Below, piece after piece: positions 4,101 to 24,000 of a stretch of DNA of 24,000 nucleotides. The translations under genes were made by a program, and so were the position numbers. Source of the DNA: Candidatus Parvarchaeota archaeon (lineage in GTDB: Archaea > Nanobdellota > Nanobdellia > JAFCGN01 > DAOVEB01); assembly GCA_030669205.1 (NCBI GenBank), contig DAOVEB010000002.1, forward strand, positions 1 through 24,000, in the 5' to 3' direction. Numbering within the stretch: position 1 is the stretch's first letter; every line of letters begins with the position of its first letter. The notes beneath the pieces are model-generated. The model was not told the DNA's origin. It made no database searches and saw only the letters and a list, made by a program, of their open reading frames with translations.

Positions 4101-4286
4101 CTATCCATTTTCAACTGTTATGGCCTCCTCTGGGCACTGGACCTCGCAGGCCTTGCATCCGATGCACTCTCCCGGCTTCTTCACAACAACTTCCTTGTTG
4201 TCCTTGCCGAAGACATCCATCGGGCAGATGTTTATGCAGGTGCCGCAGTTCGTGCACTTCTTCTTGTCTATAACTGGTCTTGGCAT
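4101..4286 (-). CDS. Small 2x[4Fe-4S] ferredoxin (61 aa).
   Basis: Two CxxCxxCxxxCP motifs (CTNCGTCINICP and CIGCKACEVQCP). The start is taken at the internal ATG (MPRPVIDKKK). The longer track ORF overlaps the upstream gene, and a TATA box sits 24 nt before this ATG. Confidence 0.85.
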   Translation of the reverse strand: MPRPVIDKKKCTNCGTCINICPMDVFGKDNKEVVVKKPGECIGCKACEVQCPEEAITVENG

Positions 4287-7300: not shown

Positions 7301-7569
7301 CAGTACTGTCCGTTGTTGCAGATAGCAGGGCCGACCAGAGGACAGCCCCAATTTACGCAGAGGGATGTGCCAGAACAACTTAACTCACAAGTGTCACAGG
7401 AGGATGCAGCGGATGGACAATAATTACAGCTGCCACTTCCTCCACCTCCACCACCTCCGCCGCCCGTATTTGGGCCGGTCTCAGCCCCCATCCCTGTCTC
7501 GAACAAGAGAGGAAACAGTAATATGAAAGTAAGTAGGGCTGTTGCAACCAACACTATGTATCTTCTCAT
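4321..7569 (-). CDS. Secreted giant cysteine-rich protein (1082 aa): signal peptide, Gly9 linker, about 600 aa of dense Cys arrays including one MopE-type motif, then a Cys-poor beta-rich region and a Cys-rich C-terminus.
   Basis: N-terminus is [30 protein letters not shown] followed by [12 protein letters not shown] (7438-7464). By hand count there are 23 Cys in the first roughly 118 residues after the linker. Contains [22 protein letters not shown] (6478-6543). ATGA overlap with the upstream gene at 7566-7569. Confidence 0.85.
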
Positions 7570-8459
7570 CCGTACATCAACTCACATTGAGATACAAATT
7601 CCCCATTACGAAAGATTGTCTGGTTGAAGATAAAAAACGTGTCTGTGATGCACTGATATATCTCCAAGGTCATGTCACCGAGTCCTCCACTCCGGTTTAC
7701 GGTTTCCACAGTATAATAGCATCTGACACCATCAAACTCCGCCTCGCCGAGCACTTCCCTTGAAAAACTTTGGTCCCAGTCAACTGAGTAAGTTCCGTTG
7801 CTCACGTGCAACACACCCTCGTAGTCCCATTTCTTGCCAACGTTAAATGGCGTATCATAAGAGAGTAACGGTGGGTCATACATATAGTTGTATTGGTAGT
7901 CTTCAAAGGAATAGACATAAAGGTCACCGTCAACAACGGAGATGTTGAAGTTCTCATAGTTTGTATGTCCTGTTCCTGAGTTTTGGAAGACATAGTGGCC
8001 ATCAACGCGCTCCATATTCACGCTTTCGGTCTTGTTCAAACCCTTGCTGTCCATACACATGTACCACCATGTATGGGTGACGTCCTTCCACATATCGGCC
8101 TGTATGACCTCGTACAGGGGTATACTCCAAGTGTCGTTTGGCACCGAGCCAAACTCGACTTCCAGACCGTCTTTGAATCCATCCCCATCTGTGTCATTTG
8201 AAAGAGGGTCCGTGCCGTAGGTTATCTCTATCCCATCAACTATTCCATCGTTGTCCGTGTCCTGTGCAAGTGGGTCTGTTCCCAGAGAGAGTTCATCCAA
8301 ATCTGTGAGCCCGTCTCCGTCTGTGTCGGATAACAACATGGTTGTTCCGAGGATTATCTCCTGGTAGTTCGGGATTCCGTCACCATCCAAATCCAGCGCA
8401 GAGAAAACGGCTACCGCTACAAAAATTACCAGTACAGCGAAAAGTGCGACCTTTTTCAT
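7566..8459 (-). CDS. Secreted protein with thrombospondin type-3-like Ca-binding repeats (DxDxDGxxDxxE) and a C-terminal Cys-poor beta domain.
   Basis: Signal [28 protein letters not shown], then repeated GTDPLxxDTDxDG units (8160-8393). ATG 8459 is preferred because GGTGGA lies 7 nt upstream. The alternative ATG at 8474 directly abuts the upstream stop. Confidence 0.85.
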
Positions 8460-8474
8460 GTCATAGTCCACCAT

Positions 8475-11400: not shown

Positions 11401-14400
11401 AAGGTACCGTCAACTTCAAACTGGTACAACGTTCCGTCAAAGTTCATCGTCACGTTGAACAGTGGCGGCGAATAGGCCTGCCTCTCGAGAAGTTTGAGTG
11501 TGAGCGGCTCCTCTGTCGTGTCCATCTCAAATATGTAGTCGCTTGAAAGGGTTGTAGACTCACACACTGGTTCAGAGTTGACATCTGGCTGGGAGGTCAT
11601 GAAACTCAAGACATCGGCTCCGTGCGCAGAGATGACTGCTGAGAAGGAATCGTTGAACGTTGAGGATATGGCCGTCTCCCCGCGGACCAGGTTGAGGTTC
11701 GCGTCCAATGTTATTCCATACGCCCTTGGCAGGAAATAAAATCCTGTCCAGGAGTTTATCTTGTGGAGCGAAGGGTAGAAGTTCTGCACAGCGTCCGTTG
11801 GCTGGGACTGGCCCGTGCTGGTCCACACCACGTCAAATGAATCAGAGTCAAGCCTGGACGCAAAGCAATAGAGACAATCCGTACACGTGAGCGTCTCCAC
11901 CTGCTCGCATACTAGCATTGAGCCGTCGCAGCCAAGAGCTGTGTATCCATCATCACATCCCTTGGAGCCAGACGGTATTATATCACACTGGACTGGTGAG
12001 GTGCCGCAGACACCGTCAAAGTCTTCGCAGTCTATCCTGTACGAAGCATTTGGTGAGAGGGTGCCTGTGAAGTCTATCTCCGAGTCGCTGGCTATGCTAC
12101 TGACGTATGGCACACAGTCGCACCCACTTTTGTAGTAACCTGCGGCACAGGAGATGGTGTAGGTCCTCTCGCACTCGCAGCTTGACGGGTTGAACGTGTA
12201 GCTGCTTGGGCACTGGCCGTCGCCTGATGGGGGGACCGCACTGAACGGAGCTATTGCAAAGGGTGTATAGAAGAAACCACCGCTTGGCACGCAGTTGCCA
12301 TAGCCGTCGCAGGTCTCGTCAGAGCCGCAGAGTGAGTAGGAAGTGTAGCAGCTGTCGCAGGTGCAGTCGCCGCTGCATCGGTCGCAGAGCGAGTACTGCT
12401 CAATCTCAGTAACAACACGCCAGGTGTGAACTTCAGTGAACTCCATGTCATATACCAAGACATTGTCAAAGTTGCCGTTGAAGTCGAAGCGCGTGAGGTA
12501 GTCGTATGGTTTGGCTGGAGCTGGGGGTTGTGTGAGTGAGGTTCCGATGTCATAGAAGTAGAGTTCGATTGTCCTGTCCCATTCGCTCGCCGGCATTGAG
12601 AGGGTGAAGGTTACGTTCTCTCCAGGCGTCAATATACCATCCCAGACCGGTTCTGTGTCAGATTCGAAAACCTTCTCCATGTTTGCTGTCCTAGCAACGG
12701 CATTGGTTTTCCCAGACCAGAACCCAAGGAGTTTTCCACCACCAAACGGAGCCAGTTGGGTAGTGCCATCCAACCACTCTATTGTACCACCAGTATTAGT
12801 TACACAAGAGATGACTCCACGGTCAACTATGCTACAAATGGCATCATTAGATACGCTCGTCAGGTCGGTAAACTTGCTGGCACCAACATCCATATCAATG
12901 TCCAGTCCTCCATGGGTCACCATAACAAATGGGTCGTCTATATCTTCAGTTCCCGTGTTCTCAACAACCACCTCAATCATCACCCTGTCACTGTCATTGT
13001 TGAAGCCGACGTTTCCGCCCCTGTCCGAACAATCCGAGGATGTGGTATACCTCGTGTTTGAGTTGCAGTCATGGTACTGCTTGTAATTCCCGGCAGAGTT
13101 GAACACTCCGACTTCGGTTATGCGGGCCTCGATGTAGCCGGTGGTTGACCAGCCGTATGGGTCACAATCGGCACCAGTAAGTAACCCTCTATTCAAATTG
13201 CTACAGTAACCATTTCTACAGTCCGCATAATGTTGCCCATCATAGTCCAAAGAAGCGTCGCAGGTGCAGATTTCCTCGTCGGCGTAGTAGACCTTGTCCG
13301 TCATGAACGGGACATTATATGGATTGCCGCATGTCTCGCCGTATATACAGATGTTTTTCATGTATTCTTCCAACTCTGCGATACAAATATCCGATGCATG
13401 ATATGGTTGATAATAGACTTGGTGGAGGTAGCTAGGGCTATAATACTCATCGGCCCTAGGACAGGAATGTTCCATTATATCCAAAAACTCATCATAAGAA
13501 GCCATTGGTGAGATTGTAGAACCATCATTGGCTTCACAGTACGGCTCACAATTTGGGCACATGCAGTACATTCCAGCAGCAATGGAATCCCACCTGCATC
13601 TTGTGTAGTCATAAGGCGGAATGTCACAAATGCTATCCAAGCAACCCGGTTGCACCAATGGAACAGGGAAATATATGTAATCATCATCGCTGCAGGAGTA
13701 TTCAAGACTGTAGTATGCACCTGGCAAGTCCTGATATGTAAACCTGCTAGGAAGTCTTGAAATATCGTGTGACCCGTCTCCTGTTGTCATGGAAGGTCCA
13801 CTTGGATTCATAGTAAGCTCAATCGGGTCTATATCACCAATATCAGCAGATACCGGCATCTGAGTACCTATCTTCATCTCCTGTGCGTTCTGGTCATAAT
13901 AGTCCATAATCCAGCCACTATGTGAAAAATAAAATAGTGTACCATCATGTTTCACAGCAACTGCCCCACAATCAAGGTTGTTGGTGCAAAAATCATACTG
14001 TTCATCTGTGCCGTCCTCATCTAAATCCAATTCAGCGTATCCCAAACAAACATCACTGGAAGTCGGCTTTGTGCCACTTGGTCCAGTCATGTCGCAGACA
14101 ACATTCTGGAAAGTAGCTAAATCAGGTCCAGATGCAATTGAATTTTTCTTCACAGGGAACTGGTAATCAAAGCTGTAATCCGCGCTGCTCCTGCCGCAGG
14201 ACCACGCAGTGTACGCAGGACTGTACTCACAACTGTAGCAAGTGCCACCGTCTGCACAGCCGGAATACAGGAAATCTACAGAATGATCGCCATCCACTAC
14301 CAAGAGGTTGTTAGGACTATATGCAGTAGAACCACAGTAATATGGTGTCACTGGTGTCTCTGGTGTAGTTTCAGTTGCTCTGCAATGCTCATCACACTGA

Positions 14401-14822
14401 GTAGTTGGGGACCCTCCCTGAAATACACATTGCCCATCCATACATCCAGCACCGCTGCAGAGCTCCTGATCCAAACACCAGCAGTTTACATAGATGCCTG
14501 TATAGGTTTGAGAAGCAGGGCATCCTGGTATACCCAAACCAGCACAACTTGGAACAAAGCTGTATTCGCATCCTTGATTAAGGTCTGTCCACTGGTCGGC
14601 TGTGGTGTATGTCACCTGGTCTATACATCCGCTAATTGGCAGACCGGTGCCTTCTCTGAAGCAGTAACCTGTACCTGATGGGCACAGATTTGTACACGCA
14701 TCACACTGAACATAGCTAAGGACCGAGACATATTCTCCGCAGTCAACCTGGGAGTATACCCCCTTAATTAACAGTAGACCTAAGGACAAGAGACATACTA
14801 TGAACAAAACTCTCTTGTTCAT
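8475..14822 (-). CDS. Secreted giant cysteine-rich protein (2115 aa), mosaic of Cys-knot-like arrays and Cys-poor beta-rich segments.
   Basis: One uninterrupted 6.3-kb frame. Sec signal MNKRVLFIVCLLSLGLLLIKGVYS/QVDC. GGAGGAG Shine-Dalgarno site 8 nt upstream. Recurrent C-x-[SAD]-G-x(4,5)-G-(T)-C-x-C modules. C-terminal CGDWICQDNERCYTCPADCPP module. Confidence 0.9.
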   Translation of the reverse strand: MNKRVLFIVCLLSLGLLLIKGVYSQVDCGEYVSVLSYVQCDACTNLCPSGTGYCFREGTGLPISGCIDQVTYTTADQWTDLNQGCEYSFVPSCAGLGIPGCPASQTYTGIYVNCWCLDQELCSGAGCMDGQCVFQGGSPTTQCDEHCRATETTPETPVTPYYCGSTAYSPNNLLVVDGDHSVDFLYSGCADGGTCYSCEYSPAYTAWSCGRSSADYSFDYQFPVKKNSIASGPDLATFQNVVCDMTGPSGTKPTSSDVCLGYAELDLDEDGTDEQYDFCTNNLDCGAVAVKHDGTLFYFSHSGWIMDYYDQNAQEMKIGTQMPVSADIGDIDPIELTMNPSGPSMTTGDGSHDISRLPSRFTYQDLPGAYYSLEYSCSDDDYIYFPVPLVQPGCLDSICDIPPYDYTRCRWDSIAAGMYCMCPNCEPYCEANDGSTISPMASYDEFLDIMEHSCPRADEYYSPSYLHQVYYQPYHASDICIAELEEYMKNICIYGETCGNPYNVPFMTDKVYYADEEICTCDASLDYDGQHYADCRNGYCSNLNRGLLTGADCDPYGWSTTGYIEARITEVGVFNSAGNYKQYHDCNSNTRYTTSSDCSDRGGNVGFNNDSDRVMIEVVVENTGTEDIDDPFVMVTHGGLDIDMDVGASKFTDLTSVSNDAICSIVDRGVISCVTNTGGTIEWLDGTTQLAPFGGGKLLGFWSGKTNAVARTANMEKVFESDTEPVWDGILTPGENVTFTLSMPASEWDRTIELYFYDIGTSLTQPPAPAKPYDYLTRFDFNGNFDNVLVYDMEFTEVHTWRVVTEIEQYSLCDRCSGDCTCDSCYTSYSLCGSDETCDGYGNCVPSGGFFYTPFAIAPFSAVPPSGDGQCPSSYTFNPSSCECERTYTISCAAGYYKSGCDCVPYVSSIASDSEIDFTGTLSPNASYRIDCEDFDGVCGTSPVQCDIIPSGSKGCDDGYTALGCDGSMLVCEQVETLTCTDCLYCFASRLDSDSFDVVWTSTGQSQPTDAVQNFYPSLHKINSWTGFYFLPRAYGITLDANLNLVRGETAISSTFNDSFSAVISAHGADVLSFMTSQPDVNSEPVCESTTLSSDYIFEMDTTEEPLTLKLLERQAYSPPLFNVTMNFDGTLYQFEVDGTLDMGLVAASEDPYEAVLLGPAGQRLSDYTLMLFSLTEPEDATCGECDTDGFAGVCYVEDEIGRCVNSSGMQCLSDGFPVTPNCSFGYQLSGCACQGIVNVTSNITDADGITHINIGKDYDVTRAVVRKIGGTVPVSGATVKLHYTSTAPGTPPTCDSGYTLNTGTCECGTTSSARCEPPATCTGGVCSDSSEPVCPSGQFVTGTCNCLITEAPACGSGHILQGCECVLTESHTKDDETNGDGIVTFTLDELEDLNSASVFVFDDSDNFASAMDIDVLWKINCTADCETTSLSVSPILEIRDEGNLFDGYLKVIEYECANSPGCGILNEYDTVYSVIGGEVTLGARGSFENNFGETADAPNFKQFLLEFYAEDPDVNTDRNLNPLILGTVLDVYYDNETDKTYITNDPIIIVDTVSTGTFVGRDTCNVHSSVRIPREITVLAPDCASIVVYNGLEAIPHQVLSSGDSQCKIVIVPDTSTTSVDVYYGTGFPEISYETSWGSMLGDNSRYVIENTLVNATYSLSCWDRGPCISNLTVVPDTSPNGTGWVGKGIMWDDTESENQEVEFTVDGPLKKCMSIRYNSSAPYFVDCSVYLLDQSECPSVPGSRYQTVEREICVYKDIPALFENFHLLDTYPSNQPPVEHTIFQSAYPATPLTVYSSGLSAGSYSTDGDSGQVSGDGAVWANLFGVFYNVSSKFSYSLDIRPTVVSDAYLSDLWTSHREIYSQLPDSLDMLPSDDYILDYETISFCTPDRYRCESAGINNNGSMQYYASTWLHSGTTSNCEGYSEGYENVFGTTCGTGMERGELEISLGIQRTGSHLLRFSTVEEEADIDSPDITLRNSMGGEARLVEPFTCGISNNDFSCVMDKDEKDIMLNLDRQGYVINCMVDSGSYKHLNTRYFNPYMMPMSWEVQFDIIVNPYIRQPVPIYVEERQSSLAATTCGDWICQDNERCYTCPADCPPVDVQFEPTLTTGGG

Positions 14823-14828
14823 TCCATC

Positions 14829-14839
14829 ATCTCCTCCCC
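14829..14839 (-). promoter_or_regulatory. Shine-Dalgarno site (GGGGAGGAGAT) for the 2115-aa gene.
   Basis: Read directly in the 61-nt gap between the 937-aa and 2115-aa genes. Confidence 0.55.
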
Positions 14840-14883
14840 GCTTCCACGGACAGAATTACAGACCGTTAAAAGAACTTTTCTGT

Positions 14884-17697
14884 TCATGGTATCTCCTCCA
14901 TCTTGCCGTATGGTCCGTAGGCAGGCGCGCATTCCTCCTTAACGATGATATCCCTGGTTTTGAGGTTTTCAGATTCGTCATAGTAGTAGCACTCGTAGGT
15001 CTGCAGAGTGTCTGGCTGGTACTTCACACATATGCCAGGTGTGATGAGCCTGCAGCAGGGCGAAATTATCCTGCCGTTGATGTCCCTGATAGTCTCGTCA
15101 TGGGTTGGCAGGCAGCAGAAGTTGTTCGCGTTGCACACCATCTGTATGTCGTTGACGCCTATCCTCACAACATTGCAGTCGCATGCCTCGTCATCGGTTC
15201 CAGACAGGCATATCGAACCTATTTCATTCAGGTTTTTACATATCTCGCAACTGTACGGAGACGTGACCTCAAAGGTGCTGTTCTCTGCAAAGAGGAGCTG
15301 TATTGGGAGGCCAGCAGCCTGCGCCCTACCTGTCGGGTTAAAGGAGTAGTCGGCCGAATATGTGAGCTGTCGCGACTCGCCTGTGCAGTGGTCGGTCACG
15401 TTGACGTACAGGCTCTTCAGTTTTATCCTCCACGGATAGCCTGTGAGCGCCTCCAGTTTCGCTGGTGAGACCTCCTCGAACTCGCGGAAGAATTCTGCCC
15501 TCAGCGCAGCGTCGAACATGTTCTCGCACTCCTCATTCGGACAGAACGCGCAGTTGAAGACCTCGACGTCGGTCAGGTTGTACTTTGCGCACTCCATGTC
15601 GTCGTATGTGTAGTCCGTGCCTTCCAAGCCCATGTTCCAGATGAGCCTCGTGAGCCAGTCCTGCTTCGGGAGTATGAGGTCTTCGGTTGCGAAGCACTCG
15701 CAATCAGCCTCTCTCACGTCAACTTTGCTCTGGTCAACGGTCCTCAGATTGCAAGCCAGGTCCTTCTTGCAGTAGTAACCTGCTGGATACGTTGTGCTGT
15801 CAATGGTTCTCTCCTCAAAGTGCTCCATGCTGTAACCACTTGGGCAAGTGGCAGTTGGATGGCAGGTGCAGCCATCTGAAACCCCTGTGCAGGAGTTCAG
15901 CTCGCACTGGCAAGTGCCTGAAACTAGGGTCCCAGACGCGCAGTTTGCGTCAGTGGGTGTATAACATGTTATGACATTGCCATCGCACCTCGGAACCTTT
16001 CCACCTGTGCAGAAATCATAGTACAACACATCAATACCATCCAAACATGTCGGAAAACTTGAAATACAGATGTAGTTATAAGTTCCAGGACAGCCACCGA
16101 AGACGTAGGAGTAACTTTCTCTGTAACATTTGCCAGAGTCACATGTTATTCCTAGGCAGGTCGCATCTGTATAGCTGCAACTGTCATAACCTTCAGTCCC
16201 ACAGTAGTACTCCCCATCGCTGTACACGATGTTTTCCGGCTCGCAGTCACTGGGGTCACGCACGCACTTCCCTGAATCACACCGGTCCCCGGAAGAGCAG
16301 GCAGAACCGAGCGTCTCTCCTTCTTTGACGAATACCTGGAGCGTCTTCATGGTGACCGCGTCAAGTATGTAGTCAATCCTGTGTTCAAGCTCGTACTCCT
16401 GCCACCCAATATAGTCTGCGTACTTCCCGGCATACACGCCACTGACATAGTCCTTTGAATAGGAATACAGGTCTGGGAAACCTCCCTTGTAGCCGACCAT
16501 CGAGAGAAGTGAGAGGTAATTGGTGAGGTCGAACCTGCCTGCTGTGATGTTCATGCAGAGCCTCTCCCCCTCGCCCGGTATGAAGGTATACCCTATTTCG
16601 CCTTTGTCCACGTTGATTTCTCCAATTCTGGTGTCAACAAAGTCGAACTTGTCCCTTCTGATGTCATAGTATATCCAGTCCTTGCCGAGCTCCATGACCT
16701 TCCTCACAGCAGGCTCGAGGTAGACGGACCTTCCGGTCAAACTGCCGTACGGGTCGATGAAGACGTGGTACCTTGCTGTGCCAATCTGAATCTCGTCACC
16801 CGAACCCACAGAAGAATCCCTTATGGAAGGTGCCACATCATAGCAGTACTCGTTCGTCTGACCTATGTCAAAGGTATAAGTGGTGTCACCCTCTCCCTTG
16901 TATGAGTAGACCCCAAGATACTTGCCGCCGGCAGCCATGCATCCGGTGAAGTTGTAGCCTGAAACGTCAAACTCGTCAGTTAATGTGAGCTTTGTCCTGT
17001 TCATCGACCTGAGCTCGAGCTGGATGTTTTCTATTGTAACAGTTTCGCCGAGCGCGGATGAGACCATCTCGAGGTTCGGGTCATCGGTCGGGTCGAACTC
17101 AACTGTGCCGTTCAGATAGTAGTAGACGTCATAGGTATGCTTCAGGTACGGCCTCGAGAGCTCGGGGTCGGATATGTATTTGCTGCCGCCTGTCTCCTTG
17201 AAAACGAGATATGTCTCTGACTGCAGAGAGCCGGAAGGTGCGAGGGCGGATGCCCTTGAGAACGGGAAGTAATCGGCGAGGAGCGAGTCAACGGTCTCAA
17301 TCAAATCATTCTCATCAGGTATGCAGAGCTCACCACGGTTCTTCCAGTAACGGACAACGGTTTCGTCGTCAACTGTGGCGAAGAAGTCCGGAACTGGCAG
17401 GAACGGGAGAAAGTCGGCAACATCGATGTAGCGATAGCTTTCGGGAATCAAACACGTGTCCGGGTCCCCACCACCCACAAGACCGGTGAAAAGTATCGCC
17501 CTGTCAAGGGCATAGCGCCTCTCCTGGTCAAAGAGCAGCCTTGCTGATTCGCCGGATGAGATTGTTGTCACGAGCCTGCCCCTTATGTTGGTTGAGCCGC
17601 CGATTGTGGCTGTATAGGAGAATGTGTTCATCAGGGCCCAGAAGGTAGCAACCGCCATCCCGAGTATTATTATGAGGTTTGTCTGTGCACGCTTCAC
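14884..17697 (-). CDS. Giant protein (937 aa) with a pilin-like (class III signal-like) N-terminus and Cys-rich central and C-terminal regions.
   Basis: GTG start at 17697 immediately after the TAG of the upstream gene. The N-terminus (V/M)KRAQTNLIIILGMAVATFWAL resembles the 129-aa pilin N-terminus KAQGLPLNTIVLGALAVLV. A dense Cys block is encoded at 15694-16299. Confidence 0.8.
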   Translation of the reverse strand: MKRAQTNLIIILGMAVATFWALMNTFSYTATIGGSTNIRGRLVTTISSGESARLLFDQERRYALDRAILFTGLVGGGDPDTCLIPESYRYIDVADFLPFLPVPDFFATVDDETVVRYWKNRGELCIPDENDLIETVDSLLADYFPFSRASALAPSGSLQSETYLVFKETGGSKYISDPELSRPYLKHTYDVYYYLNGTVEFDPTDDPNLEMVSSALGETVTIENIQLELRSMNRTKLTLTDEFDVSGYNFTGCMAAGGKYLGVYSYKGEGDTTYTFDIGQTNEYCYDVAPSIRDSSVGSGDEIQIGTARYHVFIDPYGSLTGRSVYLEPAVRKVMELGKDWIYYDIRRDKFDFVDTRIGEINVDKGEIGYTFIPGEGERLCMNITAGRFDLTNYLSLLSMVGYKGGFPDLYSYSKDYVSGVYAGKYADYIGWQEYELEHRIDYILDAVTMKTLQVFVKEGETLGSACSSGDRCDSGKCVRDPSDCEPENIVYSDGEYYCGTEGYDSCSYTDATCLGITCDSGKCYRESYSYVFGGCPGTYNYICISSFPTCLDGIDVLYYDFCTGGKVPRCDGNVITCYTPTDANCASGTLVSGTCQCELNSCTGVSDGCTCHPTATCPSGYSMEHFEERTIDSTTYPAGYYCKKDLACNLRTVDQSKVDVREADCECFATEDLILPKQDWLTRLIWNMGLEGTDYTYDDMECAKYNLTDVEVFNCAFCPNEECENMFDAALRAEFFREFEEVSPAKLEALTGYPWRIKLKSLYVNVTDHCTGESRQLTYSADYSFNPTGRAQAAGLPIQLLFAENSTFEVTSPYSCEICKNLNEIGSICLSGTDDEACDCNVVRIGVNDIQMVCNANNFCCLPTHDETIRDINGRIISPCCRLITPGICVKYQPDTLQTYECYYYDESENLKTRDIIVKEECAPAYGPYGKMEEIP

Positions 17698-18117
17698 CTA
17701 ATCACCCACACTCATATATTTGAACGGTCTCCCTCCTCTGAAAAGCTCATAGGGGTTGAACACCGAGATGGAGCAGTCGCCGGTTATGCTGCCCTCGTAT
17801 ATCTTCTTGTCAGAGTAGTACTGGAGCAAAAACAGCCTGTTTGGGTTCACGTACTCTATGGGAAGTCCCCCATAGTACTCCGAAAGGTCTGCGTAGGAGC
17901 CGATTTCCTGGAATCCCAGCTCATACCTTATGTAGTCGTTCCTGTACAGCGACGTGAGCATTGCGCTGCACTCCTCCATCTTCTCCGTGTTCACAACCTG
18001 GAGGAGTATGGTCTGCTTCGAAGACTCGGCAAAGAGACTATACGTTATTATAAATGCGGAGCTGGAAACTGCCAGAAGTATGATTTCGATGAACGTTATT
18101 GCCCCTTTTCTGTTCAT
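17698..18117 (-). CDS. Pilin-like protein (139 aa) with a class III signal peptide.
   Basis: MNRKG/AITFIEIILLAVSSSAFIITYSLF has basic residues, Gly, then a hydrophobic helix with Glu at +6, which is type IV pilin-like. TAATG overlap with the upstream gene. Confidence 0.75.
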   Translation of the reverse strand: MNRKGAITFIEIILLAVSSSAFIITYSLFAESSKQTILLQVVNTEKMEECSAMLTSLYRNDYIRYELGFQEIGSYADLSEYYGGLPIEYVNPNRLFLLQYYSDKKIYEGSITGDCSISVFNPYELFRGGRPFKYMSVGD

Positions 18118-18941
18118 TAGAATCCACCTCCCGTGAAAGATACAGAGGTGCTACCGCCGACCCCGTACTTTATTGTGGTTGTGAGTATGCCCACGCTGTC
18201 CCTGACGAAAGCCCCATCTTCATCAACGTATCTGATGACAACTGGCACGCTGGACGTATAGACCGAAGACTTGTCCTCAAGGTAGTCTATGAAATAACTG
18301 TCAAGTGTGTAGAGACCTTCGGGTTCCGGTGCCTTGAAGATGAGAGAGACATCCGCGCCCTGGCCAACAATTGCGAGAGCTATATTCAAAGCTATATCAG
18401 TTATTACGACGGCTGTTGAAATAGCACCTGACCAGAACTTTGTAATCTCCTTCGTTGTCTCGACAAAGAGATGAGCCTCTGTCATGTTCAGCTGAGGACT
18501 TGTGCTCAGACGGTGGTTTTTGAGTCTCCGGTTGTCCTCAAGGTCCCTCAACTCAAAGTCGATGACGTAGAGGCTGTAGGTGGTGTCGCCAACCGCGCTC
18601 CACGGAACCTCGGTTATATCGTTGAAGAAGTAACTCTGGATGCAGCCGAAGTATCTGTCCATGTTGAACTTCCTCTCATCCACCACTCCTGGGTAGACCC
18701 GCCTGATTGTACGGATTTTGTCGTTCGTCTCGTCGTAACTCACAGCGCCTGTCTCATAGGCGAAACAGTCGGCAGATGAATAAGCGCGAGTAGCGAGAGA
18801 ATTGGCGAAGCTCCTGGCATCGGCCCAAGTCGAGATGATGGTGATGTCGCTGAACTTGTAGCTTATAGACAGCACCATGAGTGAAAAGAGCATCATGGCT
18901 AGGGAAGCGTTCACGTATGCCATGATTTCTATCTCTGCCAT
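18117..18941 (-). CDS. Membrane-anchored or secreted protein (274 aa) with an N-terminal hydrophobic helix (non-canonical pilin-like); ends in TGGGF.
   Basis: N-terminus MAEIEIMAYVNASLAMMLFSLMVLSISYKF. The ATG lies 3 nt after the upstream TAG, with a GTGAGGT Shine-Dalgarno-like site upstream. No family recognised. Confidence 0.7.
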   Translation of the reverse strand: MAEIEIMAYVNASLAMMLFSLMVLSISYKFSDITIISTWADARSFANSLATRAYSSADCFAYETGAVSYDETNDKIRTIRRVYPGVVDERKFNMDRYFGCIQSYFFNDITEVPWSAVGDTTYSLYVIDFELRDLEDNRRLKNHRLSTSPQLNMTEAHLFVETTKEITKFWSGAISTAVVITDIALNIALAIVGQGADVSLIFKAPEPEGLYTLDSYFIDYLEDKSSVYTSSVPVVIRYVDEDGAFVRDSVGILTTTIKYGVGGSTSVSFTGGGF

Positions 18942-18944
18942 CCT

Positions 18945-21410
18945 CTAAACCTCACAATAACATACCCCTGGTAAAGGCAAGGTGTTAAAAATAGTATTGC
19001 ACCTAGCCCCTGAGAGTGGTTGCAGATTGCTCATATCTCCCGTGAACTCCAGTTCGAACGGGAAACACCTTCCATTACCATACCCTTCGTTGTTACATAT
19101 CTCAGTGCAACCACTGCATTCGATAAATTCGACAAGACACAAAGGAGGTGGGCAGTCAGTTGGACACTGCCAGCTGTCCTCTCCCTCATCACACACCCCA
19201 TCCCCACACTTATAACTCTCCGTGAGTATGTCGTTCCAGTTCATGAGCACAACTGGCTCGCAGCCATTGTTCATGATCTTGACTTCTGCACCGACCCTAT
19301 CGGCTTTGAGGGAGCATTTATAGTACATCGACTGTAAAAATCCTGGTTTCAGTTCGAGGGACCTCGACTCCAGGGGCATTTCAGGTATTATGGTGTTCAA
19401 CGTGTTGCTCAGCACATCCAGGGGTGATTCCATCCCGGCAAGGCTGAAGATGAAGTCAAGTCCGTCACCGAAGAAAGGTATGTCCACTGTCACAGATGGA
19501 AGGAGGTGTGATGTATGCTTGAACCAGTAGGTGTTGCCGCTCTCCCTGAGCTCCCATAAACTCGGATTAATGTCATAGCCGGTGGCTATAAGCATCTGCT
19601 CCAGCAAATTGGGTTCGACTATCTGACCGTCCTTCAGGGTGTAATCTATGGTGAGATTTTCAAATTGGACATCGACACTGCAACCGATGTCGGCAAAGTC
19701 ATAGCAGAAGAGTTTGAAGTTGCCTTGCTCCTCACCCTCCTCGTTCCTTGCGAAGTGGTTCTCGCACAGCATGCCGTTTTCATAGGAAAAGAACCTCGCA
19801 GGTGTGACGTAAACGTCAAAGGTCTGGTCGCTGCCCTTGCACGCCTTCTTCACATAATCCGCTATCTCCCCAACTCCAATTGGATAATAGCTGTCTCCAT
19901 CGCCGCACAGGGTGTCAAAGGTCTCCTTGTTCTTTGAGAGGACAATTTTCCCATCCGACATCTCCAGCGAAGGCGTCTCGTAATTGCCTCCAAAATAGGA
20001 GAGCTGGTTGCGCAGGAAGCACATGTCCTCCCCATTGACACCATAGCTCTTTACAGCCTTTATCTCGTCCTCGTCAGTGGTGAAGTCGATGGTCACAGCA
20101 CCATATTTGCCGGCGTAGAAGTCGTAGAAGCTGTCCGCGCTGTCCAGGTCAACTTGGAACAATATTTGGTTGCCTGTAAGAAAGTCAACCAGTTCCCACA
20201 GCGGGTCATCTGTCCTGCACGACCTGTAAGCTGCGTAGCCGGTTGCAGTCGTCTGTGCCCAGAGAGGCAGGTCCCTGTAGTACCTCAACTTCGAGGCCCA
20301 GTCAGGCATGGACCTAAAGGGTGTGGCTGCCATCCACTTCACTGGTTTGAACCTGCGAACCCCGTCAGAACCAACATAGGTGTACTCTATATAGCTGTTG
20401 TACTTCCTCAGGTCCTCGGCCTTCACGTGGTTCAGCCAGTCGTCCATATCGAGGTCACCGGTGTGGGTCAGGAAGTAATGGTTCATCCCGTTCTCCATAA
20501 CATCCAGTCTGTCTTCGGCTCTTTTTAGATGGCTATATGATGTAGCATATACCCCCCTGCCGGCACCGGGAACACCGTCTATCATGTCCTTAGTGTGTCT
20601 TGCCATAGCTCCGTTAGGGTCTGCTATTATGTCATCCATTATCGATTTGGCATAGTCATCCGCATCATCGTAGTGATTCTTTAGGAACTTCGAATTATCG
20701 AAGGTAGTATCCCCTCTTCTTATTGCGTCCGCGATAGCACCCTGTGCCTCGTGTCTTGGCCTGCCCACTGCATTCATCGAGACAATATCATCGACCTCCA
20801 TACCTCTCACCATGCCGAGCCTGCTCTTCACATTGGTAACCCAGTCGCTCTTCCTGGCCTTTATATCATCTATCCAGTCCCTCAGCTTACTAAGTCTGCT
20901 CTTCGCCTTTTTTTCTATCAACTCCTCTGTCGCCTCTTGCATCCCTTCGGTAACCATATCTCTTGCCTTATCACCTGCCGTATCCTTAACCTCATTTAAC
21001 AGCGCTTTCTTCGCCTTGCCCGCCACCGCCTTCAAGGTTCCGAAGCTCATGTAGATGCACGCGGTCCTCGGGGTGTAGAGCATGCGCTCGTCCTTTGTAA
21101 AGGTCACAGCAGCGCTGACGTCGTCTATCTCCAGCCCCCCCTCGCACACGAACTTTCCGAGCCTCTGGCTCCAAGAGCATGCATGGGGCCCGCGGTACTC
21201 GACATACGCGTCCTCCGGCAGCGAGTAGAGCAGTGATGTCAAGGCTTCAAGCTCGTTTGTGAAGTGTATTATAGGCATGTTCCTCGCTGTGTAGAAGACG
21301 CCTGTCGTGTTCGCATAGTTTATGGACAGGACGAGAAACGCTCCTGAGAGGAGAAGCGTTCCAATCGTTATGGTGATATATGCCTTCCTGGACAGAACCG
21401 GTCTGGACAT
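18945..21410 (-). CDS. Giant mosaic protein (821 aa): pilin-like N-terminus, 279-aa Cys-free highly charged segment, beta-rich middle, C-terminal CGDGVCDEGEDSWQCPTDCPPP module plus a small Cys-knot-like tail.
   Basis: N-terminus MSRPVLSRKA/YITITIGTLLLSGAFLVL, compared with the mini-pilin MRA/VSLTIGTVVALIIALLV. TATA box 23 nt upstream. The CGDG module is encoded at 19143-19208. Confidence 0.8.
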   Translation of the reverse strand: MSRPVLSRKAYITITIGTLLLSGAFLVLSINYANTTGVFYTARNMPIIHFTNELEALTSLLYSLPEDAYVEYRGPHACSWSQRLGKFVCEGGLEIDDVSAAVTFTKDERMLYTPRTACIYMSFGTLKAVAGKAKKALLNEVKDTAGDKARDMVTEGMQEATEELIEKKAKSRLSKLRDWIDDIKARKSDWVTNVKSRLGMVRGMEVDDIVSMNAVGRPRHEAQGAIADAIRRGDTTFDNSKFLKNHYDDADDYAKSIMDDIIADPNGAMARHTKDMIDGVPGAGRGVYATSYSHLKRAEDRLDVMENGMNHYFLTHTGDLDMDDWLNHVKAEDLRKYNSYIEYTYVGSDGVRRFKPVKWMAATPFRSMPDWASKLRYYRDLPLWAQTTATGYAAYRSCRTDDPLWELVDFLTGNQILFQVDLDSADSFYDFYAGKYGAVTIDFTTDEDEIKAVKSYGVNGEDMCFLRNQLSYFGGNYETPSLEMSDGKIVLSKNKETFDTLCGDGDSYYPIGVGEIADYVKKACKGSDQTFDVYVTPARFFSYENGMLCENHFARNEEGEEQGNFKLFCYDFADIGCSVDVQFENLTIDYTLKDGQIVEPNLLEQMLIATGYDINPSLWELRESGNTYWFKHTSHLLPSVTVDIPFFGDGLDFIFSLAGMESPLDVLSNTLNTIIPEMPLESRSLELKPGFLQSMYYKCSLKADRVGAEVKIMNNGCEPVVLMNWNDILTESYKCGDGVCDEGEDSWQCPTDCPPPLCLVEFIECSGCTEICNNEGYGNGRCFPFELEFTGDMSNLQPLSGARCNTIFNTLPLPGVCYCEV

Positions 21411-21433
21411 CGGTCTAATTTAATATTTACATC

Positions 21434-21441
21434 AATATAAA
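21434..21441 (-). promoter_or_regulatory. TATA box (TTTATATT) 23 nt upstream of the 821-aa gene ATG, in a 60-nt AT-rich spacer.
   Basis: Minus strand reads aaacTTTATATTgatgtaaatattaaattagaccgATG. Confidence 0.45.
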
Positions 21442-21454
21442 GTTTAATACAAAT

Positions 21455-21484
21455 ATTATATCTTGTAAAATTATATCTTGTAAA
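21455..21484 (-). repeat. Perfect 15-bp tandem direct repeat (attatatcttgtaaa x2) spanning the stop codon of the 219-aa gene.
   Basis: Read directly; units are 21455-21469 and 21470-21484. Confidence 0.9.
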
Positions 21485-22130
21485 TCGCCAGAAACGGTTC
21501 CAGAGGACCGCCTGTGTCCACCTTTTCAAAGCTCATGCCGCTTATCTCTATATCGGCTCCTTTTGCATAGATGCCGTCCAGCACCTCGTAACCAGGGTCC
21601 ACGTCAACCGCAACAAAGAAGCACTCCACAGGCACACCTATGCAGCACATCGAACCATCCCCAATCTCATAGAGGTCAGTGTTGGCAAGGTCGTTGCAGG
21701 CATTTGACCTGTCAGTCTGGATGTCAGAAAGTGTTGTCATTGCATCTGATACGATATCGTAACCCGGGAAAGACGCTGGGGGCGCAGTCTTTCCCATGCA
21801 GAGGCAGAACCCCCCATCACAGTTCTCGTAGGAGCAGCTGCTCTCAGGTCTGAACTTGTTGTTTTCGTTTAAGGTCTCAAGTGTTGTATCACATGACTCA
21901 CTGCCATAGAGCTGTATTATGAAGTATGTCTGGTAGAGCATGGGTCCAGCCGAACTCCCAGGCTCACTGCTGCAGGCTGTAGACATAGCTCCCCTGCTCG
22001 ACACAAACTTGTCGTATTCGGTGTTGGTGCTGGTAAAGGAGTTGATACAAGTGAAGACAAACATTATGACTATTACGCTGAAGATTATCTGGTACATCGG
22101 GCCAAAAAACGGGATTAGCCCTTTCCTCAT
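21471..22130 (-). CDS. Pilin-like Cys-containing protein (219 aa) with a class III-like signal.
   Basis: N-terminus MRKG/LIPFFGPMYQIIFSVIVIMFVF. ATGA overlap with the upstream gene. Shares the motif C-x-G-x-[FV]-C-L-C-[MI]-G with the 257-aa neighbour. Confidence 0.75.
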   Translation of the reverse strand: MRKGLIPFFGPMYQIIFSVIVIMFVFTCINSFTSTNTEYDKFVSSRGAMSTACSSEPGSSAGPMLYQTYFIIQLYGSESCDTTLETLNENNKFRPESSCSYENCDGGFCLCMGKTAPPASFPGYDIVSDAMTTLSDIQTDRSNACNDLANTDLYEIGDGSMCCIGVPVECFFVAVDVDPGYEVLDGIYAKGADIEISGMSFEKVDTGGPLEPFLAIYKI

Positions 22131-22900
22131 CTTATCACCTCAAAATCCGTCTTTATCACACCCTCTGTGGGATAACCGGTTGCGCCCGATGTTCCAATCT
22201 GGCTGTTCGGCCTGACCCAGAGGAAGAGGTTGTTCTCGCATCCACCAGAGCAGGAACCGTCGTTAACTGTTATGTACGTTCCTTCGCCGATCCTGCCGCA
22301 GTTTATGAGGGTTATGTTCGGACGTCTTTCCCAGGCTCCTGCAAAGAAGGCCGAGCAGAGGGTTGAAAGTGTTGCGGACGGGTCTGCGCTGAGCTTGTAG
22401 ATGACCTTCCTCCTAGCAGACACATTCTCCAGTGATGATTCCAAAATAGGTACCCATGAAGGTGCGGTGCCGGACCAGTTGAGGACGCATGTACGAGAGT
22501 CGCACCTCGGACTGCCATATGGGCTGGGCGAGCATATCTCCAGGTCTTCACAACCGACGTTGTTGAACGTGCCTATGCACAGACAGACGTTTCCAGGGCA
22601 TTCCGAACCCATCTGGCTACCCGGAAGCACGGCGCCGTTGCGGTAGAGCTCCTCTATGAAGGGGGTGCAACCCTGGTCAAAGCGCAGTTGTATGGCGAAC
22701 TGGTCGGGCGCGAGTCTGAACGGCTCAATTGAGGTGGTTCCCCTGTCAATTGCGAGTGCGAACTCTTCTGCAATCTCGTCTGCCCTCGCCTCAACCGAGG
22801 TGCCCAGGATATTGGAGAGGTTGGCAAGTATCGGTGGTATCACAATCATCAGACCAGCTAGCATCAAAAGACCAAATATGGCATAGACAAGATTCACCAC
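22127..22900 (-). CDS. Membrane-anchored Cys-containing protein (257 aa), paralog of the 219-aa protein.
   Basis: GTG start (22900 or 22897), with AGGTGGTGA Shine-Dalgarno-like sequence overlapping or upstream, so the exact start is uncertain. N-terminus VNLVYAIFGLLMLAGLMIVIPPILANLSN. Internal ECPGNVCLCIGTF compares with ENCDGGFCLCMGKT in the 219-aa protein. Confidence 0.7.
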   Translation of the reverse strand: MVNLVYAIFGLLMLAGLMIVIPPILANLSNILGTSVEARADEIAEEFALAIDRGTTSIEPFRLAPDQFAIQLRFDQGCTPFIEELYRNGAVLPGSQMGSECPGNVCLCIGTFNNVGCEDLEICSPSPYGSPRCDSRTCVLNWSGTAPSWVPILESSLENVSARRKVIYKLSADPSATLSTLCSAFFAGAWERRPNITLINCGRIGEGTYITVNDGSCSGGCENNLFLWVRPNSQIGTSGATGYPTEGVIKTDFEVIR

Positions 22901-22914
22901 CTTCTATCATCAGA

Positions 22915-23070
22915 TTAGAAGGGCCACAGATTAAAAAGGTTGCCGGAGGAGTTTGTGGTATCGTTCGCCATCTGGAAAAGCGGAGGGATGAAGAAGAAGA
23001 GCACTATCATGACGAGGAGTGCGATTATGAGTGCGACAACTGTGCCGATTGTGAGGCTGACGGCTCTCAT
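22915..23070 (-). CDS. Mini-pilin-like protein (51 aa); not in the ORF track (below size cutoff).
   Basis: Hand translation gives MRAVSLTIGTVVALIIALLVMIVLFFFIPPLFQMANDTTNSSGNLFNLWPF*. ATGA overlap with the upstream 47-aa ORF. Basic-Ala N-terminus plus a hydrophobic helix of about 25 aa. Short tail with two N-x-S/T sequons. Confidence 0.65.
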   Translation of the reverse strand: MRAVSLTIGTVVALIIALLVMIVLFFFIPPLFQMANDTTNSSGNLFNLWPF

Positions 23071-23210
23071 GACGGCACCGTGCTGTTTATGAAGCCGAGT
23101 TGCCTGAGGAAAAAATCGCCTATGAAGAATATCGCGAGGACCAGGATGATGAGCGCGAACACAATTACCACAAGCGTCTCAAGCGACAGGCCGATGGCCC
23201 CCCTTTTCAT
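23067..23210 (-). CDS. Mini-pilin-like protein (47 aa), Flp/Epd-like class III signal; not in the ORF track.
   Basis: Hand translation gives MKRGAIGLSLETLVVIVFALIILVLAIFFIGDFFLRQLGFINSTVPS*. Has a KRG/A cleavage-type motif, Glu in the early helix, and an N-S-T sequon in the tail. TATA-like box 21 nt upstream. Confidence 0.65.
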   Translation of the reverse strand: MKRGAIGLSLETLVVIVFALIILVLAIFFIGDFFLRQLGFINSTVPS

Positions 23211-23231
23211 GCGGAATCAAAGGCACGCGGG

Positions 23232-23239
23232 TTTAATAT
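23232..23239 (-). promoter_or_regulatory. TATA-like box (ATATTAAA) 21 nt upstream of the 47-aa mini-pilin ATG; candidate promoter of the long downstream operon.
   Basis: Minus strand reads gggATATTAAAcccgcgtgcctttgattccgcATG. Confidence 0.35.
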
Positions 23240-23254
23240 CCCTTACGGTAGGAC

Positions 23255-23284
23255 AATAAAAAAAGAGAGAAAACTAATAAAAAA
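23255..23284 (-). terminator. Two oligo-T tracts (TTTTTTATT ... TTTTTTTATT) about 35-65 nt downstream of the 129-aa pilin stop.
   Basis: Read directly. Oligo-T termination in archaea is established knowledge. Confidence 0.5.
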
Positions 23285-23318
23285 CGCGTTTGGGAGTTTT
23301 TGTTGCCGTTTAGGTTGT

Positions 23319-23708
23319 TTAAATGGCTGTGCAGCAATATACATGGTTGGTTGCGTCGTCCGCGCATGACCCGCCTTTGATTGTTATTATTTCTCCACCT
23401 GAAAGTGAAAAGGCGCAACCGGTTGTTATGTAGTCGCCGCAGTCGGTTGTCGCAGTGTTGCTTGGGTCAGGGTCAGAGCAGAAATTGCTACCCCTCGCTG
23501 CTGCAACCGCTGTTGTCTCTGAAGAGTATATGTTGCTGAGTCCTGTGCAGTATGTCTGACAGTTGACGTACGCGTCAGGAGCAAGTCCGAAGATGCTTCT
23601 GAACATGTTTCCTATTCCTGGGACGAAAACTGCTGCCAAGATTACTAGTACTAAAACTGCTAATGCTCCCAAAACAATTGTGTTTAATGGTAAACCTTGT
23701 GCTTTCAT
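23319..23708 (-). CDS. Candidate major pilin (129 aa): class III signal peptide, hydrophobic N-helix, small 8-Cys globular domain.
   Basis: N-terminus MKAQG/LPLNTIVLGALAVLVLVILAAVFVPG. It has its own consensus TATA box and its own terminator. The C-terminal domain has 8 Cys, so up to 4 disulfides are possible. Confidence 0.8.
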   Translation of the reverse strand: MKAQGLPLNTIVLGALAVLVLVILAAVFVPGIGNMFRSIFGLAPDAYVNCQTYCTGLSNIYSSETTAVAAARGSNFCSDPDPSNTATTDCGDYITTGCAFSLSGGEIITIKGGSCADDATNHVYCCTAI

Positions 23709-23733
23709 AATAATATCAGATGGTTGGGGTTGT

Positions 23734-23741
23734 ATATAAAT
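23734..23741 (-). promoter_or_regulatory. Consensus TATA box (TTTATATA) 25 nt upstream of the pilin ATG; leaderless mRNA.
   Basis: Minus strand reads ccttaaaTTTATATAcaaccccaaccatctgatattattATG. Confidence 0.6.
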
Positions 23742-23768
23742 TTAAGGTAAAAAACGGGCCAAAAGCCT

Positions 23769-23900
23769 TTAAAATATGGTCCCGGGGAACGAACTGTTAA
23801 TCATTCCGATAATGGCCGGCGCGCCGAAGAAGATGAGGTAAATCACTATGATGATGATTCCAAGGATTAGGGGGATTATGTACTTGAGCGCGAGGTTCAC
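23769..23900 (-). CDS. Possible small hydrophobic protein (43 aa, GTG start) resembling the N-terminal module of the 257-aa protein.
   Basis: Hand translation gives (V/M)NLALKYIIPLILGIIIIVIYLIFFGAPAIIGMINSSFPGTIF*. It begins VNL like the 257-aa protein and has an N-S-S sequon after the helix. There is no ATG start, so the call is tentative. Confidence 0.3.
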   Translation of the reverse strand: MNLALKYIIPLILGIIIIVIYLIFFGAPAIIGMINSSFPGTIF

Positions 23901-23907
23901 AGCGCCC

Positions 23908-24000
23908 CTAGAACTGAAAGGTAAAAATCTTGGCAATCTGACCAATTATCGACTCACCTCTCTGGTTGAGGAAATCTATCACGAAGAGGAATGCGACGAG
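23908..24000 (-). CDS. 3' end of another small or hydrophobic ORF entering from the right edge.
   Basis: Hand translation gives ...LVAFLFVIDFLNQRGESIIGQIAKIFTFQF*. The architecture (hydrophobic helix followed by a short tail) resembles the mini-pilins. Only 30 codons are visible. Confidence 0.3.
   Translation of the reverse strand, partial: LVAFLFVIDFLNQRGESIIGQIAKIFTFQF

Follow-up and report, generated by a model that had tools for sequence, protein, structure and literature searches.

The 24,000-nucleotide (nt) window analyzed in this study, comprising the whole stretch taken from contig DAOVEB010000002.1 of a Candidatus Parvarchaeota archaeon, carries a series of minus-strand genes, numbered g1 to g14 from high to low coordinate, that probably represents the distal part of an archaeal type IV filament operon resembling those for type IV pili (T4P), with the mechanism and subunit roles proposed below. 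The locus spans positions 14884-24000 and extends functionally down to about 4321. Its assignment to the type IV filaments, originally made in a first-pass annotation, is considered highly probable, being supported by class III (prepilin) signals conserved among relatives and by synteny with genes for an ATPase and a platform-like protein in three of these relatives. The window originates from a DPANN archaeon, which is contained in the sequencing runs SRR26080959-62, and its relatives are labelled Aenigmarchaeota or Nanobdellota.

According to the proposed mechanism, the precursors would insert into the membrane via their N-terminal hydrophobic helix, a PibD/EppA-type peptidase would trim a basic leader of 2-13 residues after G or A, and an ATPase together with a platform protein would extrude a helix-bundled filament, the body of which would consist of the small subunits. 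The co-conserved g8-g9-g10-g11 proteins would assemble into a priming or tip complex of low copy number, whose members of 800-900 amino acids (aa), g8 and g11, would bear Cys-stabilized ectodomains. This complex would present the Sec-secreted g12 protein of about 2,100 aa as an adhesin, as bacterial minor pilins do with PilY1. The likely use of such a filament would be attachment to surfaces or host cells, and a host-attachment role is plausible for a DPANN archaeon.

Class III signals and families of pilin-like proteins

Class III signals were called by means of a home-made rule rather than with FlaFind, which requires a [KR][GA] pair among residues 1-30 and, no more than 8 residues further on, a stretch of 16 residues with a mean Kyte-Doolittle value of at least 1.9. 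Among all open reading frames (ORFs) of at least 40 aa in the window (n = 182), eight matched (g2, g3, g4, g5, g7, g8, g10, and g11), all on the minus strand within the block 14884-23945. None of the remaining 174 did, the Sec-type g12-g14 being among them, and shuffled versions of the window (n = 20) yielded between zero and two matches each. A ninth member with a class-III-type N-terminus (MKRG/VLTREAILLL; the slash marks the predicted cleavage site) is g1, which is truncated at 24000; its full ORF was found on Logan contig L002 (612-761), and orthologues are present in the related loci L011 and L014. The class-III-type proteins feature one N-terminal hydrophobic segment each, g7 having one further marginal stretch. 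Moreover, orthologues of 27-82% identity (L004, L005, L008, L010, L011, and L016), compared for each gene in turn, retain the [KR][GA]/hydrophobic motif.

All seven N-termini quoted in the first-pass annotation are present at the genes named, and the co-directional genes encoding a basic segment followed by a hydrophobic helix were recovered well above the shuffled background. They are not strictly consecutive, since g6 (257 aa) and g9 (274 aa), both leaderless here, intervene. The proposed pairing of the N-termini of large and small members did not hold, as the motifs in common stand out of register and do not exceed chance expectation in composition shuffles (p of about 0.03, uncorrected, for g5/g8, 0.09 for g3/g11, and 0.94 for g4/g10); the TIGT motif is also absent from the g5 orthologue of L010.

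Regarding the predicted cleavage sites, Gln occupies position +1 in g3 (KA/QGLP) and g11 (RA/QT), the other subunits having A, V, L, or Y. Published EppA-type sites read RAQI and KGQV (PMC4371748), which the sites of g3 and g11 resemble, and the RA/VS, KG/A, and KA/Y sites look similar to published PibD sites (PMC4371748). A Glu residue at +5 to +7 was found only in g1, g4, and g10, and none is located in the helix of g3 or g11.

With its KA/QGLP site and a TATA-like promoter to itself, the 129-aa g3 protein is the strongest candidate for the role of major pilin. The mini-pilins of 47-58 aa, which would retain 43-48 residues after the predicted cleavage, are alternatives to g3 as the major subunit, or may be co-subunits. 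An exhaustive phmmer search with g3 retrieved 61 cluster representatives (E <= 1e-3), all of them small and starting with M[KR][AGS]/QGLP[LIM]N, and five Cys residues are conserved in the family. In 52 relatives, A, G, or S precedes a near-invariant QGLP and the leader length varies; cleavage before QGLP is thus likelier than the QG/LP site assigned earlier. Named family members are annotated as "hypothetical" and originate from metagenome-assembled genomes of Aenigmarchaeota or Nanoarchaeota. The AlphaFold2 model of g3 (predicted local distance difference test score, pLDDT, of 78) comprises a helix at residues 8-28, followed by a small Cys-rich alpha/beta domain of short helices and a three-strand sheet. 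No match was obtained for g3 in Pfam, NCBIfam, or the PDB, and its relatives are likewise without a match to a described pilin family; an RNase A match of the g3 profile in the PDB was rejected as an artefact of signal peptide and Cys composition. The Cys-rich part of g3 (residues 66-121) also has 10 tandemly arranged matches in P0037, a protein of 1068 aa from the representative library, and the pilin head domain therefore occurs in repeated form within a large protein, too.

The leader appears to be dispensable in g6-g9, as suggested by the N-termini of their orthologues. Leaders are present in the g6 orthologues of L010 (GKKG/IEAGTKIII) and L011 (MKKG/IAITGNLIF), and g9 orthologues begin with ..KDKKG/QATPLAY (L010), MRG/QMEITAL (L008), and MKKA/S or MKKA/Q (others). 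The g9 protein of the window (M-AEIEIMAYV) begins near the mature-chain start of these leader-bearing relatives, and g6, g7, g8, and g9 are all leaderless in L016 (Ca. Haiyanarchaeum). The leaderless chains (M-AEIEI, M-PEIEA, and M-VNLVY) begin directly at the position corresponding to the start of the mature protein. Since orthologues of the leaderless g6 and g9 carry leaders, g1-g11 constitute a single family of pilin-like proteins, some members of which may or may not carry the leader, and the comparison of leader-bearing with leaderless orthologues offers a small, testable question on how subunits enter type IV filaments.

Conservation within the locus is highest for g9 and g10 (identities to L004 and L005 of 80% and 45%, respectively, for g9, and of 82% and 40% for g10), and it is lower for g11 (64% and 32%) and also for g8, g6, and g7. 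The g9 profile retrieved 15 homologues, and its AlphaFold2 model (pLDDT 67.5) consists of a helix at residues 2-55 (54 residues), five strands, and an extra helix. The helix-first architectures predicted for g9 and g3 are compatible with a pilin fold, but not decisive.

Syntenic loci, assembly-type genes, and the separable g8-g12 module

Genes of the type that assembles type IV filaments were found in three syntenic loci, namely L011, L014 ("Nanoarchaeota archaeon B33_G15"), and L016 (Candidatus Haiyanarchaeum thermophilum; Nanobdellota, Jingweiarchaeales), the latter two having been detected by a scan of GTDB genomes. These loci share the order T2SSE ATPase, polytopic protein of about 680 aa, proteins of 157, 312, and 497 aa (the last termed g0), followed by g1, g2, g3, and onward; the series reaches g11 in L011 and L016, and ends after g7 in L014. 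The ATPase is 751-798 aa long. In L011 (764 aa), it features a long N-terminal extension and matches PF00437 with 59 bits (cut-off 24.9) as well as the NCBIfam models TadA (3e-34) and FlaI (4e-30). The best relatives of the ATPase in the PDB are GspE of A. fulgidus (afGspE, 1e-24), CpaF (3e-19), and FlaI (6e-15). The adjoining platform-like protein (671-690 aa, about nine hydrophobic segments) shows a weak T2SSF match (E = 0.0023, 18.3 bits).

A partial Cys-rich gene located just upstream of the window (Logan L007) was identified as an orthologue of the 497-aa gene of L011 (35%, E = 4e-44), whose product has a class-III-type head (MKRKA/LVMGSV), indicating that the window represents the distal part of such an operon. 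This fragment had no homologue in the set of 5.8 billion proteins, which suggests that the NCBI contig stops at the window edge; Logan contigs extend the window by only about 770 nt, and no continuation was obtained with an exact 44-mer in GTDB genomes or from two scans of JGI metagenomes. Orthologues of further subunits were detected for g2 (KKA/ or KKG/ leaders in L011 and L010; match in L014 with 63% identity), g4 (L004, L010, L011, and L016), g5 (69% identity in L004), and g7 (L011 and L014).

Upstream of the L011 ATPase, two coiled-coil-like proteins of about 220 and 130 aa are encoded on the opposite strand (923-1986, minus), together with a protein of about 190 aa with five transmembrane segments. 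ORFs of corresponding size, strand, and position, matched by layout only, occur in L016 (1015-2063, minus) and L014 (1425-2432, minus). These coiled-coil-like and five-segment proteins may be further parts of the system. Between g7 and g8, L011 encodes two paralogous soluble proteins (12603-13601; 147 and 151 aa, both ending in PPEMP); one gene of this type only was found in L012 and none in the window, and no family match was obtained for them.

The locus proteins could, alternatively, be surface proteins of an ordinary kind, either Sec-secreted or signal-anchored (type II membrane), whose N-termini only look like class III signals and which are unrelated to a type IV filament, as some members are without a basic leader, no match to pilin families or pilin structures was found, and no peptidase was detected in the scanned flanks. 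On the other hand, orthologues of 27-82% identity retain the [KR][GA] pair immediately in front of the hydrophobic stretch, the number of matches is far above chance, the genes are linked in three relatives to an operon encoding a T2SSE ATPase and a platform-like polytopic protein, and the true Sec-type N-termini of g12-g14 fail the class III rule, leaving this explanation extremely improbable. An archaellum was rejected, neither an archaellin (FlaB) nor a FlaF/G/H-type or other Fla accessory domain having been found in the window or in L011.

The very large size of two pilin-headed members (821 and 937 aa) was correctly recognized in the first-pass annotation, and it is retained in the orthologues. 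Those of g8 comprise 630-744 aa and carry RKA/, QRG/, HRA/, or MRA/ leaders, the L016 orthologue being leaderless, and those of g11 comprise 711-975 aa, with Gln at +1 in 6/6 (L004, L005, L008, L010, L011, and L016). Only two homologues of g11 (64% and 32% identity) exist among the 5.8 billion proteins. In PDB sequence searches, g8, g11, and g12 gave no meaningful match, and g8 and g11 gave none in Pfam. In L004, the g8 orthologue consists of two pieces (469 and 354 aa), the break lying around a NGEDMCFLRNQLSFFGGD stretch that is duplicated (3372-3460); this is probably an assembly artefact or a frameshift.

The conserved core consists of g8 (630-821 aa), g9 (264-302 aa), g10 (128-213 aa), g11 (711-975 aa), and the Sec-type, Cys-rich g12 of about 2,100 aa. 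These five genes co-occur in L005, L008/L009, L010, L011, and L016 (g12 of L016 by position only). The module is missing from L014, which stops after g7 and continues with radical SAM, S-layer, and glycosyltransferase genes (10001-20243), and it is detached from g1-g7 in L009 (1-10877), where g8/g9 are preceded by unrelated PIN/RHH genes and the locus ends just past g9. Accordingly, g8-g12 are separable from the assembly-and-pilin module, though usually fused with it. Orthologues of g12 in L005, L008, and L010 share 25-32% identity over several segments, and that of L010 carries a Laminin_G_3 (lectin-type) domain. The g13 and g14 genes are accessory, as no counterpart was found in the related loci examined; g13 had no homologue among the proteins at the g12 position, and in L008 Alba comes immediately after g12.

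Common Cys motifs were observed in two protein pairs: residues 735-755 of g8 (19146-19208) and 2081-2101 of g12 (8517-8579) share YKCGDGVCDEGEDSWQCPTDCPPP (52% over 21 aa), and g6 and g7 share a C.C.G motif. These similarities suggest that modules may have been exchanged among the locus proteins.

Ectodomains of 600-900 residues cannot pack at every position of a shaft, for which reason g8-g11 are expected to be low-copy, and g12, having no anchor of its own, would be held by the g8-g11 complex. The location of these four pilin-like genes beside a very large secreted protein likewise suggests, by analogy, that an adhesin is presented by a tip or priming complex of low copy number. This tip-complex and adhesin part of the interpretation is tentative, its chances being somewhat short of even. 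In a more far-reaching version, g8-g11 would be an independently evolved archaeal counterpart of the bacterial minor-pilin priming/tip complex, the disulfide-rich ectodomains of 700-975 aa together with g12 would constitute a DPANN host-recognition head, and g9 and g6 would enter the filament base uncleaved, their genes encoding the "mature" N-terminus directly; this proposal is speculative and rather doubtful.

A different use of the same proteins would be a bindosome-like or pseudopilus display, in which the ATPase and platform would build only a short, envelope-embedded stalk that anchors and presents the class-III-headed g0, g8, and g11, and no long pilus is formed. The Sulfolobus bindosome provides a precedent, its large proteins with class III signals relying on dedicated PilB/PilC homologues for their assembly (PMC4371748), and the presence of three large pilin-headed proteins here, including the g0 orthologue (497 aa, L011), as well as the tiny size of many subunits (47-58 aa), would agree with such a structure. 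However, neither a substrate-binding-protein domain nor any other ligand-binding domain is detectable in g8 and g11, and the wide conservation of the small g3 pilin (61 representatives), together with the promoter-like element of its gene, points to an abundant subunit of a filament, so that a display stalk is clearly unlikely.

The constant position of g12 directly after g11, the missing C-terminal anchor segment of g12-g14, and the number of genes, four minor pseudopilin-like plus one major and thus resembling GspG-K, would also suit a secretion pseudopilus, i.e., a piston like that of the type II secretion system (T2SS) that exports or releases g12-g14 instead of an adhesive organelle. However, in an archaeon with one membrane only, no further translocation is required once Sec has acted; scans of the window and L011 proteins revealed neither a secretin nor any other component specific to the T2SS, and g13 and g14 are not conserved. 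A secretion pseudopilus is therefore regarded as very unlikely.

Several observations weigh against the type IV filament interpretation or its individual parts. None of the pilin-like proteins matches a described pilin family or a solved pilin, either by sequence or by Foldseek, and the archaeal pilin models PF04021 (Class_IIIsignal), PF07790 (Pilin_N), and TIGR02537 gave no match even at E <= 1 (10 proteins). With g6 and g9 here, and g7, g8, and g9 in some relatives, being without a cleavable leader, not all members can be classical peptidase substrates. The ATPase and platform genes, on which the first-pass annotation had made its filament depend, were found in the relatives only and are not present in the window, which answers that condition for the relatives though not for this genome. 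The T2SSF match of the platform-like protein stays below the Pfam cut-off (25.2 bits), and the profile of the three proteins finds nothing in the PDB. No prepilin peptidase (Peptidase_A24) was found in the Pfam-scanned flanks of L011 and L014, L016 lying outside that scan; the small polytopic proteins upstream of the ATPase also lacked Peptidase_A24 (L011 and L014) and, by eye, a GxGD-type motif (L011). As the class III peptidase of archaea is often encoded elsewhere (PMC4371748), its absence from the scanned flanks is weak evidence. Finally, the tip location and the presentation of an adhesin rest only on analogy and steric reasoning.

Gene layout and promoter-like elements of the window

All real genes of the window are located on the minus strand (Table 1), and gaps or overlaps of 0-4 nt were found inside g4-g5, g6-g7, g8-g11, and g12-g14. 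A GGAGG-type site precedes g12 (consensus match only). Considering sequence features alone, the promoter-like elements would fit strong expression of g3 and a g8-g14 unit that is driven independently.

As previously proposed, the locus runs without a strand switch into three proteins with Sec-type N-termini, though only two of them are giant, g13 measuring 302 aa. The Ca-binding and Cys-rich character ascribed to these proteins is divided among them, with TSP3 Ca repeats in g13 and Cys-richness in g12 (116) and g14 (103). No PilY1/PilC-type or DUF2341 domain was found in g8-g14.

Beyond g14, towards lower coordinates, the archaeal housekeeping genes Alba, FKBP, FtsZ, Spt5, and L11 follow, and no signal of horizontal transfer was apparent from base composition, the locus being equal to the housekeeping part of the window. 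The chromosomal neighbourhood of L008 is the same. At the 90% identity level, the FKBP protein clusters with proteins whose named members derive from "Candidatus Aenigmarchaeota archaeon". Between g14 and Alba, a 61-aa ORF (4101-4286, minus) with two CxxCxxCxxxCP motifs (2x[4Fe-4S] ferredoxin type) is nested within a longer listed ORF. Downstream of L11, at the expected L1 position (1 to about 530, minus), another Sec-signal Cys-rich protein begins (MGAKALAFTLTCLLLFSAAHA...), which contains CDGxDNDCDG-type motifs and extends past the low window end.

Table 1. Features of the window and gene series of the related loci (slash, predicted cleavage site; series in aa or as gene names).
Feature	Coordinates	Strand	Description	Basis
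g1	23908..24000	-	3' part of 49-aa mini-pilin gene, MKRG/VLTREAILLLIAVL..., cut at window end
g2	23769..23945	-	58-aa mini-pilin, TTG start, ...SSRG/AVNLALKYIIPLILG...
Candidate g3 promoter	23733..23740	-	TATA-box-like TTTATATA, starts 32 nt upstream of g3 ATG	Consensus match only
g3	23319..23708	-	129-aa candidate major pilin, MKA/QGLPLNTIVLGALAVL..., 8-Cys globular part
Possible archaeal terminator/attenuator	23253..23287	-	T-rich runs past g3 stop	Sequence inspection
g4	23067..23210	-	47-aa mini-pilin, MKRG/AIGLSLETLVV..., conserved Glu at +7
g5	22915..23070	-	51-aa mini-pilin, MRA/VSLTIGTVV..., 4-nt overlap with g4
g6	22127..22900	-	257-aa pilin-like protein, N-terminal hydrophobic helix without basic leader here (MVNLVYAIFGLLML...), 12 Cys
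g7	21471..22130	-	219-aa pilin-like protein, MRKG/LIPFFGPMYQIIF..., 11 Cys, Cys motif in common with g6
AT-rich spacer	21411..21470	-	About 18% GC; candidate internal promoter TTTATA located 31 nt before g8 ATG	Consensus match only
g8	18945..21410	-	821-aa giant pilin-headed protein, ..SRKA/YITITIGTLLLSG.., charged variable middle, C-terminal Cys module
g9	18117..18941	-	274-aa pilin-like protein, leaderless here (M-AEIEIMAYVNAS...)
g10	17698..18117	-	139-aa minor-pilin-like protein, MNRKG/AITFIEIILL..., conserved Glu at +5/+6
g11	14884..17697	-	937-aa giant pilin-headed protein, MKRA/QTNLIIILGMAVA..., 49 Cys
g12	8475..14822	-	2115-aa Sec-signal Cys-rich (116 Cys) secreted protein, candidate adhesin
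g13	7566..8474	-	302-aa secreted protein, bacterial TSP3 Ca-binding repeats	Pfam PF18884, E = 1.3e-22
g14	4321..7569	-	1082-aa Sec-signal protein, 103 Cys (9.5% Cys)
Leader-variable orthologues	L008 1974-2768; L010 5136-6044, 1371-2141; L016 11241-15648		With g9 and g6 of the window
L004 series			46, 51, 255, 230, 469+354, 274, 138, 975
L005 series			637, 267, 145, 723, >2108
L008 series			g8, g9, g10, g11, g12, Alba, FKBP
L010 series			59, 118, 133, 62, 60, 256, 236, 744, 302, 146, 722, 2087
L011 series, start			50.8-kb scaffold carrying g3 relative P0030; 764 (ATPase), 686 (polytopic), 157, 45, 312, 497
L011 series, middle			66 (g1), 59 (g2), 115 (g3), 129, 56 (g4), 265 (g6), 213 (g7), two soluble inserts
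L011 series, end			744 (g8), 267 (g9), 142 (g10), 711 (g11), 1876 (g12)

Comparison with known systems

The molecules with which DPANN archaea, living attached to host cells, establish this contact are mostly unknown. The QGLP pilin family (at least 61 cluster representatives) and the g8-g12 module are testable candidates for an attachment organelle and its recognition head, respectively. Furthermore, the pilin models of Pfam and NCBIfam miss every subunit of the locus, so that surveys reporting no type IV pili in such genomes may be underestimates.

The first-pass annotation could not tell whether the architecture had been described before; such loci have already been published (PMC4858521, PMC6393860, and bioRxiv 10.64898/2026.04.22.720090). 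Archaeal T4P loci were reported to encode at least five minor pilins as well as large proteins, either PilY-like or unassigned ("adhesin or minor pilin"), and to feature many conserved Cys residues (Makarova et al. 2016, PMC4858521), and DPANN "dark matter" islands located beside an ATPase and TadC were read as diverse pilins (Makarova et al. 2019, PMC6393860). PilA-family pilins have been noted in Haiyanarchaeum (Rao et al. 2023, PMC10134863). Compared by description, the operon fits the "system 2" loci well, which feature N-terminally extended ATPases, one platform gene, motif-bearing and motif-less pilins, and large adhesin-like proteins (bioRxiv 10.64898/2026.04.22.720090). The locus thus has in common with system 2/clade 2 and the DPANN pilin islands an extended ATPase, a single platform-like gene, a mixture of class III and motif-less pilins, large adhesin-like proteins, many conserved Cys residues, and fast-evolving pilins that escape family models. 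It differs from system 2/clade 2 in that 0/12 pilin-locus proteins match a described family (no match in Pfam, NCBIfam, or the PDB), that the large g8 and g11 are themselves pilin-headed, and that a fixed five-gene module, g8-g12, can travel apart from the assembly genes.

The [KR][GA]/Q site type of g3, g11, and some g9 proteins is also that of the Epd pilus of Methanococcus maripaludis, to which the locus can be likened in the short major pilin, the several essential minor pilins, and the adhesin-like genes in the operon of that system. Epd, as a system 1 pilus, differs in having its own EppA and a pair of platform genes; here, a single platform-like gene was found and the scanned flanks yielded no peptidase, PF04021/DUF361 is not matched, and g3 and g11 have no Glu at +5.

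Bacterial minor-pilin priming complexes are represented by FimU-PilVWXE/PilY1 of P. aeruginosa and by GspH-I-J-K of the T2SS. With these, the locus shares four co-inherited pilin-like genes of unequal size beside a very large non-pilin secreted protein. The comparison is an analogy only, since there is no sequence or domain homology and no secretin, and two members are 3-5 times larger here than bacterial minor pilins. Modular or large bacterial pilins, such as PilB/PilC of S. sanguinis, TcpB of V. cholerae, and CofB of enterotoxigenic Escherichia coli, combine a pilin head with a large ectodomain at the tip; they comprise about 400-550 aa and recognizable modules. Their counterparts in this study are archaeal, 630-975 aa long, Cys-rich, and without a recognized fold. 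Minor-pilin priming is also referred to in the archaeal survey, which cites Nguyen et al. 2015 (PMC4858521). Oversized class III-signal proteins are likewise known from the Sulfolobus bindosome (Bas), where they depend on their own PilB/PilC homologues (PMC4371748); the bindosome subunits are sugar-binding proteins, whereas g8 and g11 are without a recognizable domain.

In conclusion, the kind of system is already known, as loci for archaeal type IV filaments that encode minor pilins along with large adhesins. New here are the protein families outside current models, the pilin head on proteins of 630-975 aa, the fixed, separable g8-g12 module, and the orthologues with an optional leader.

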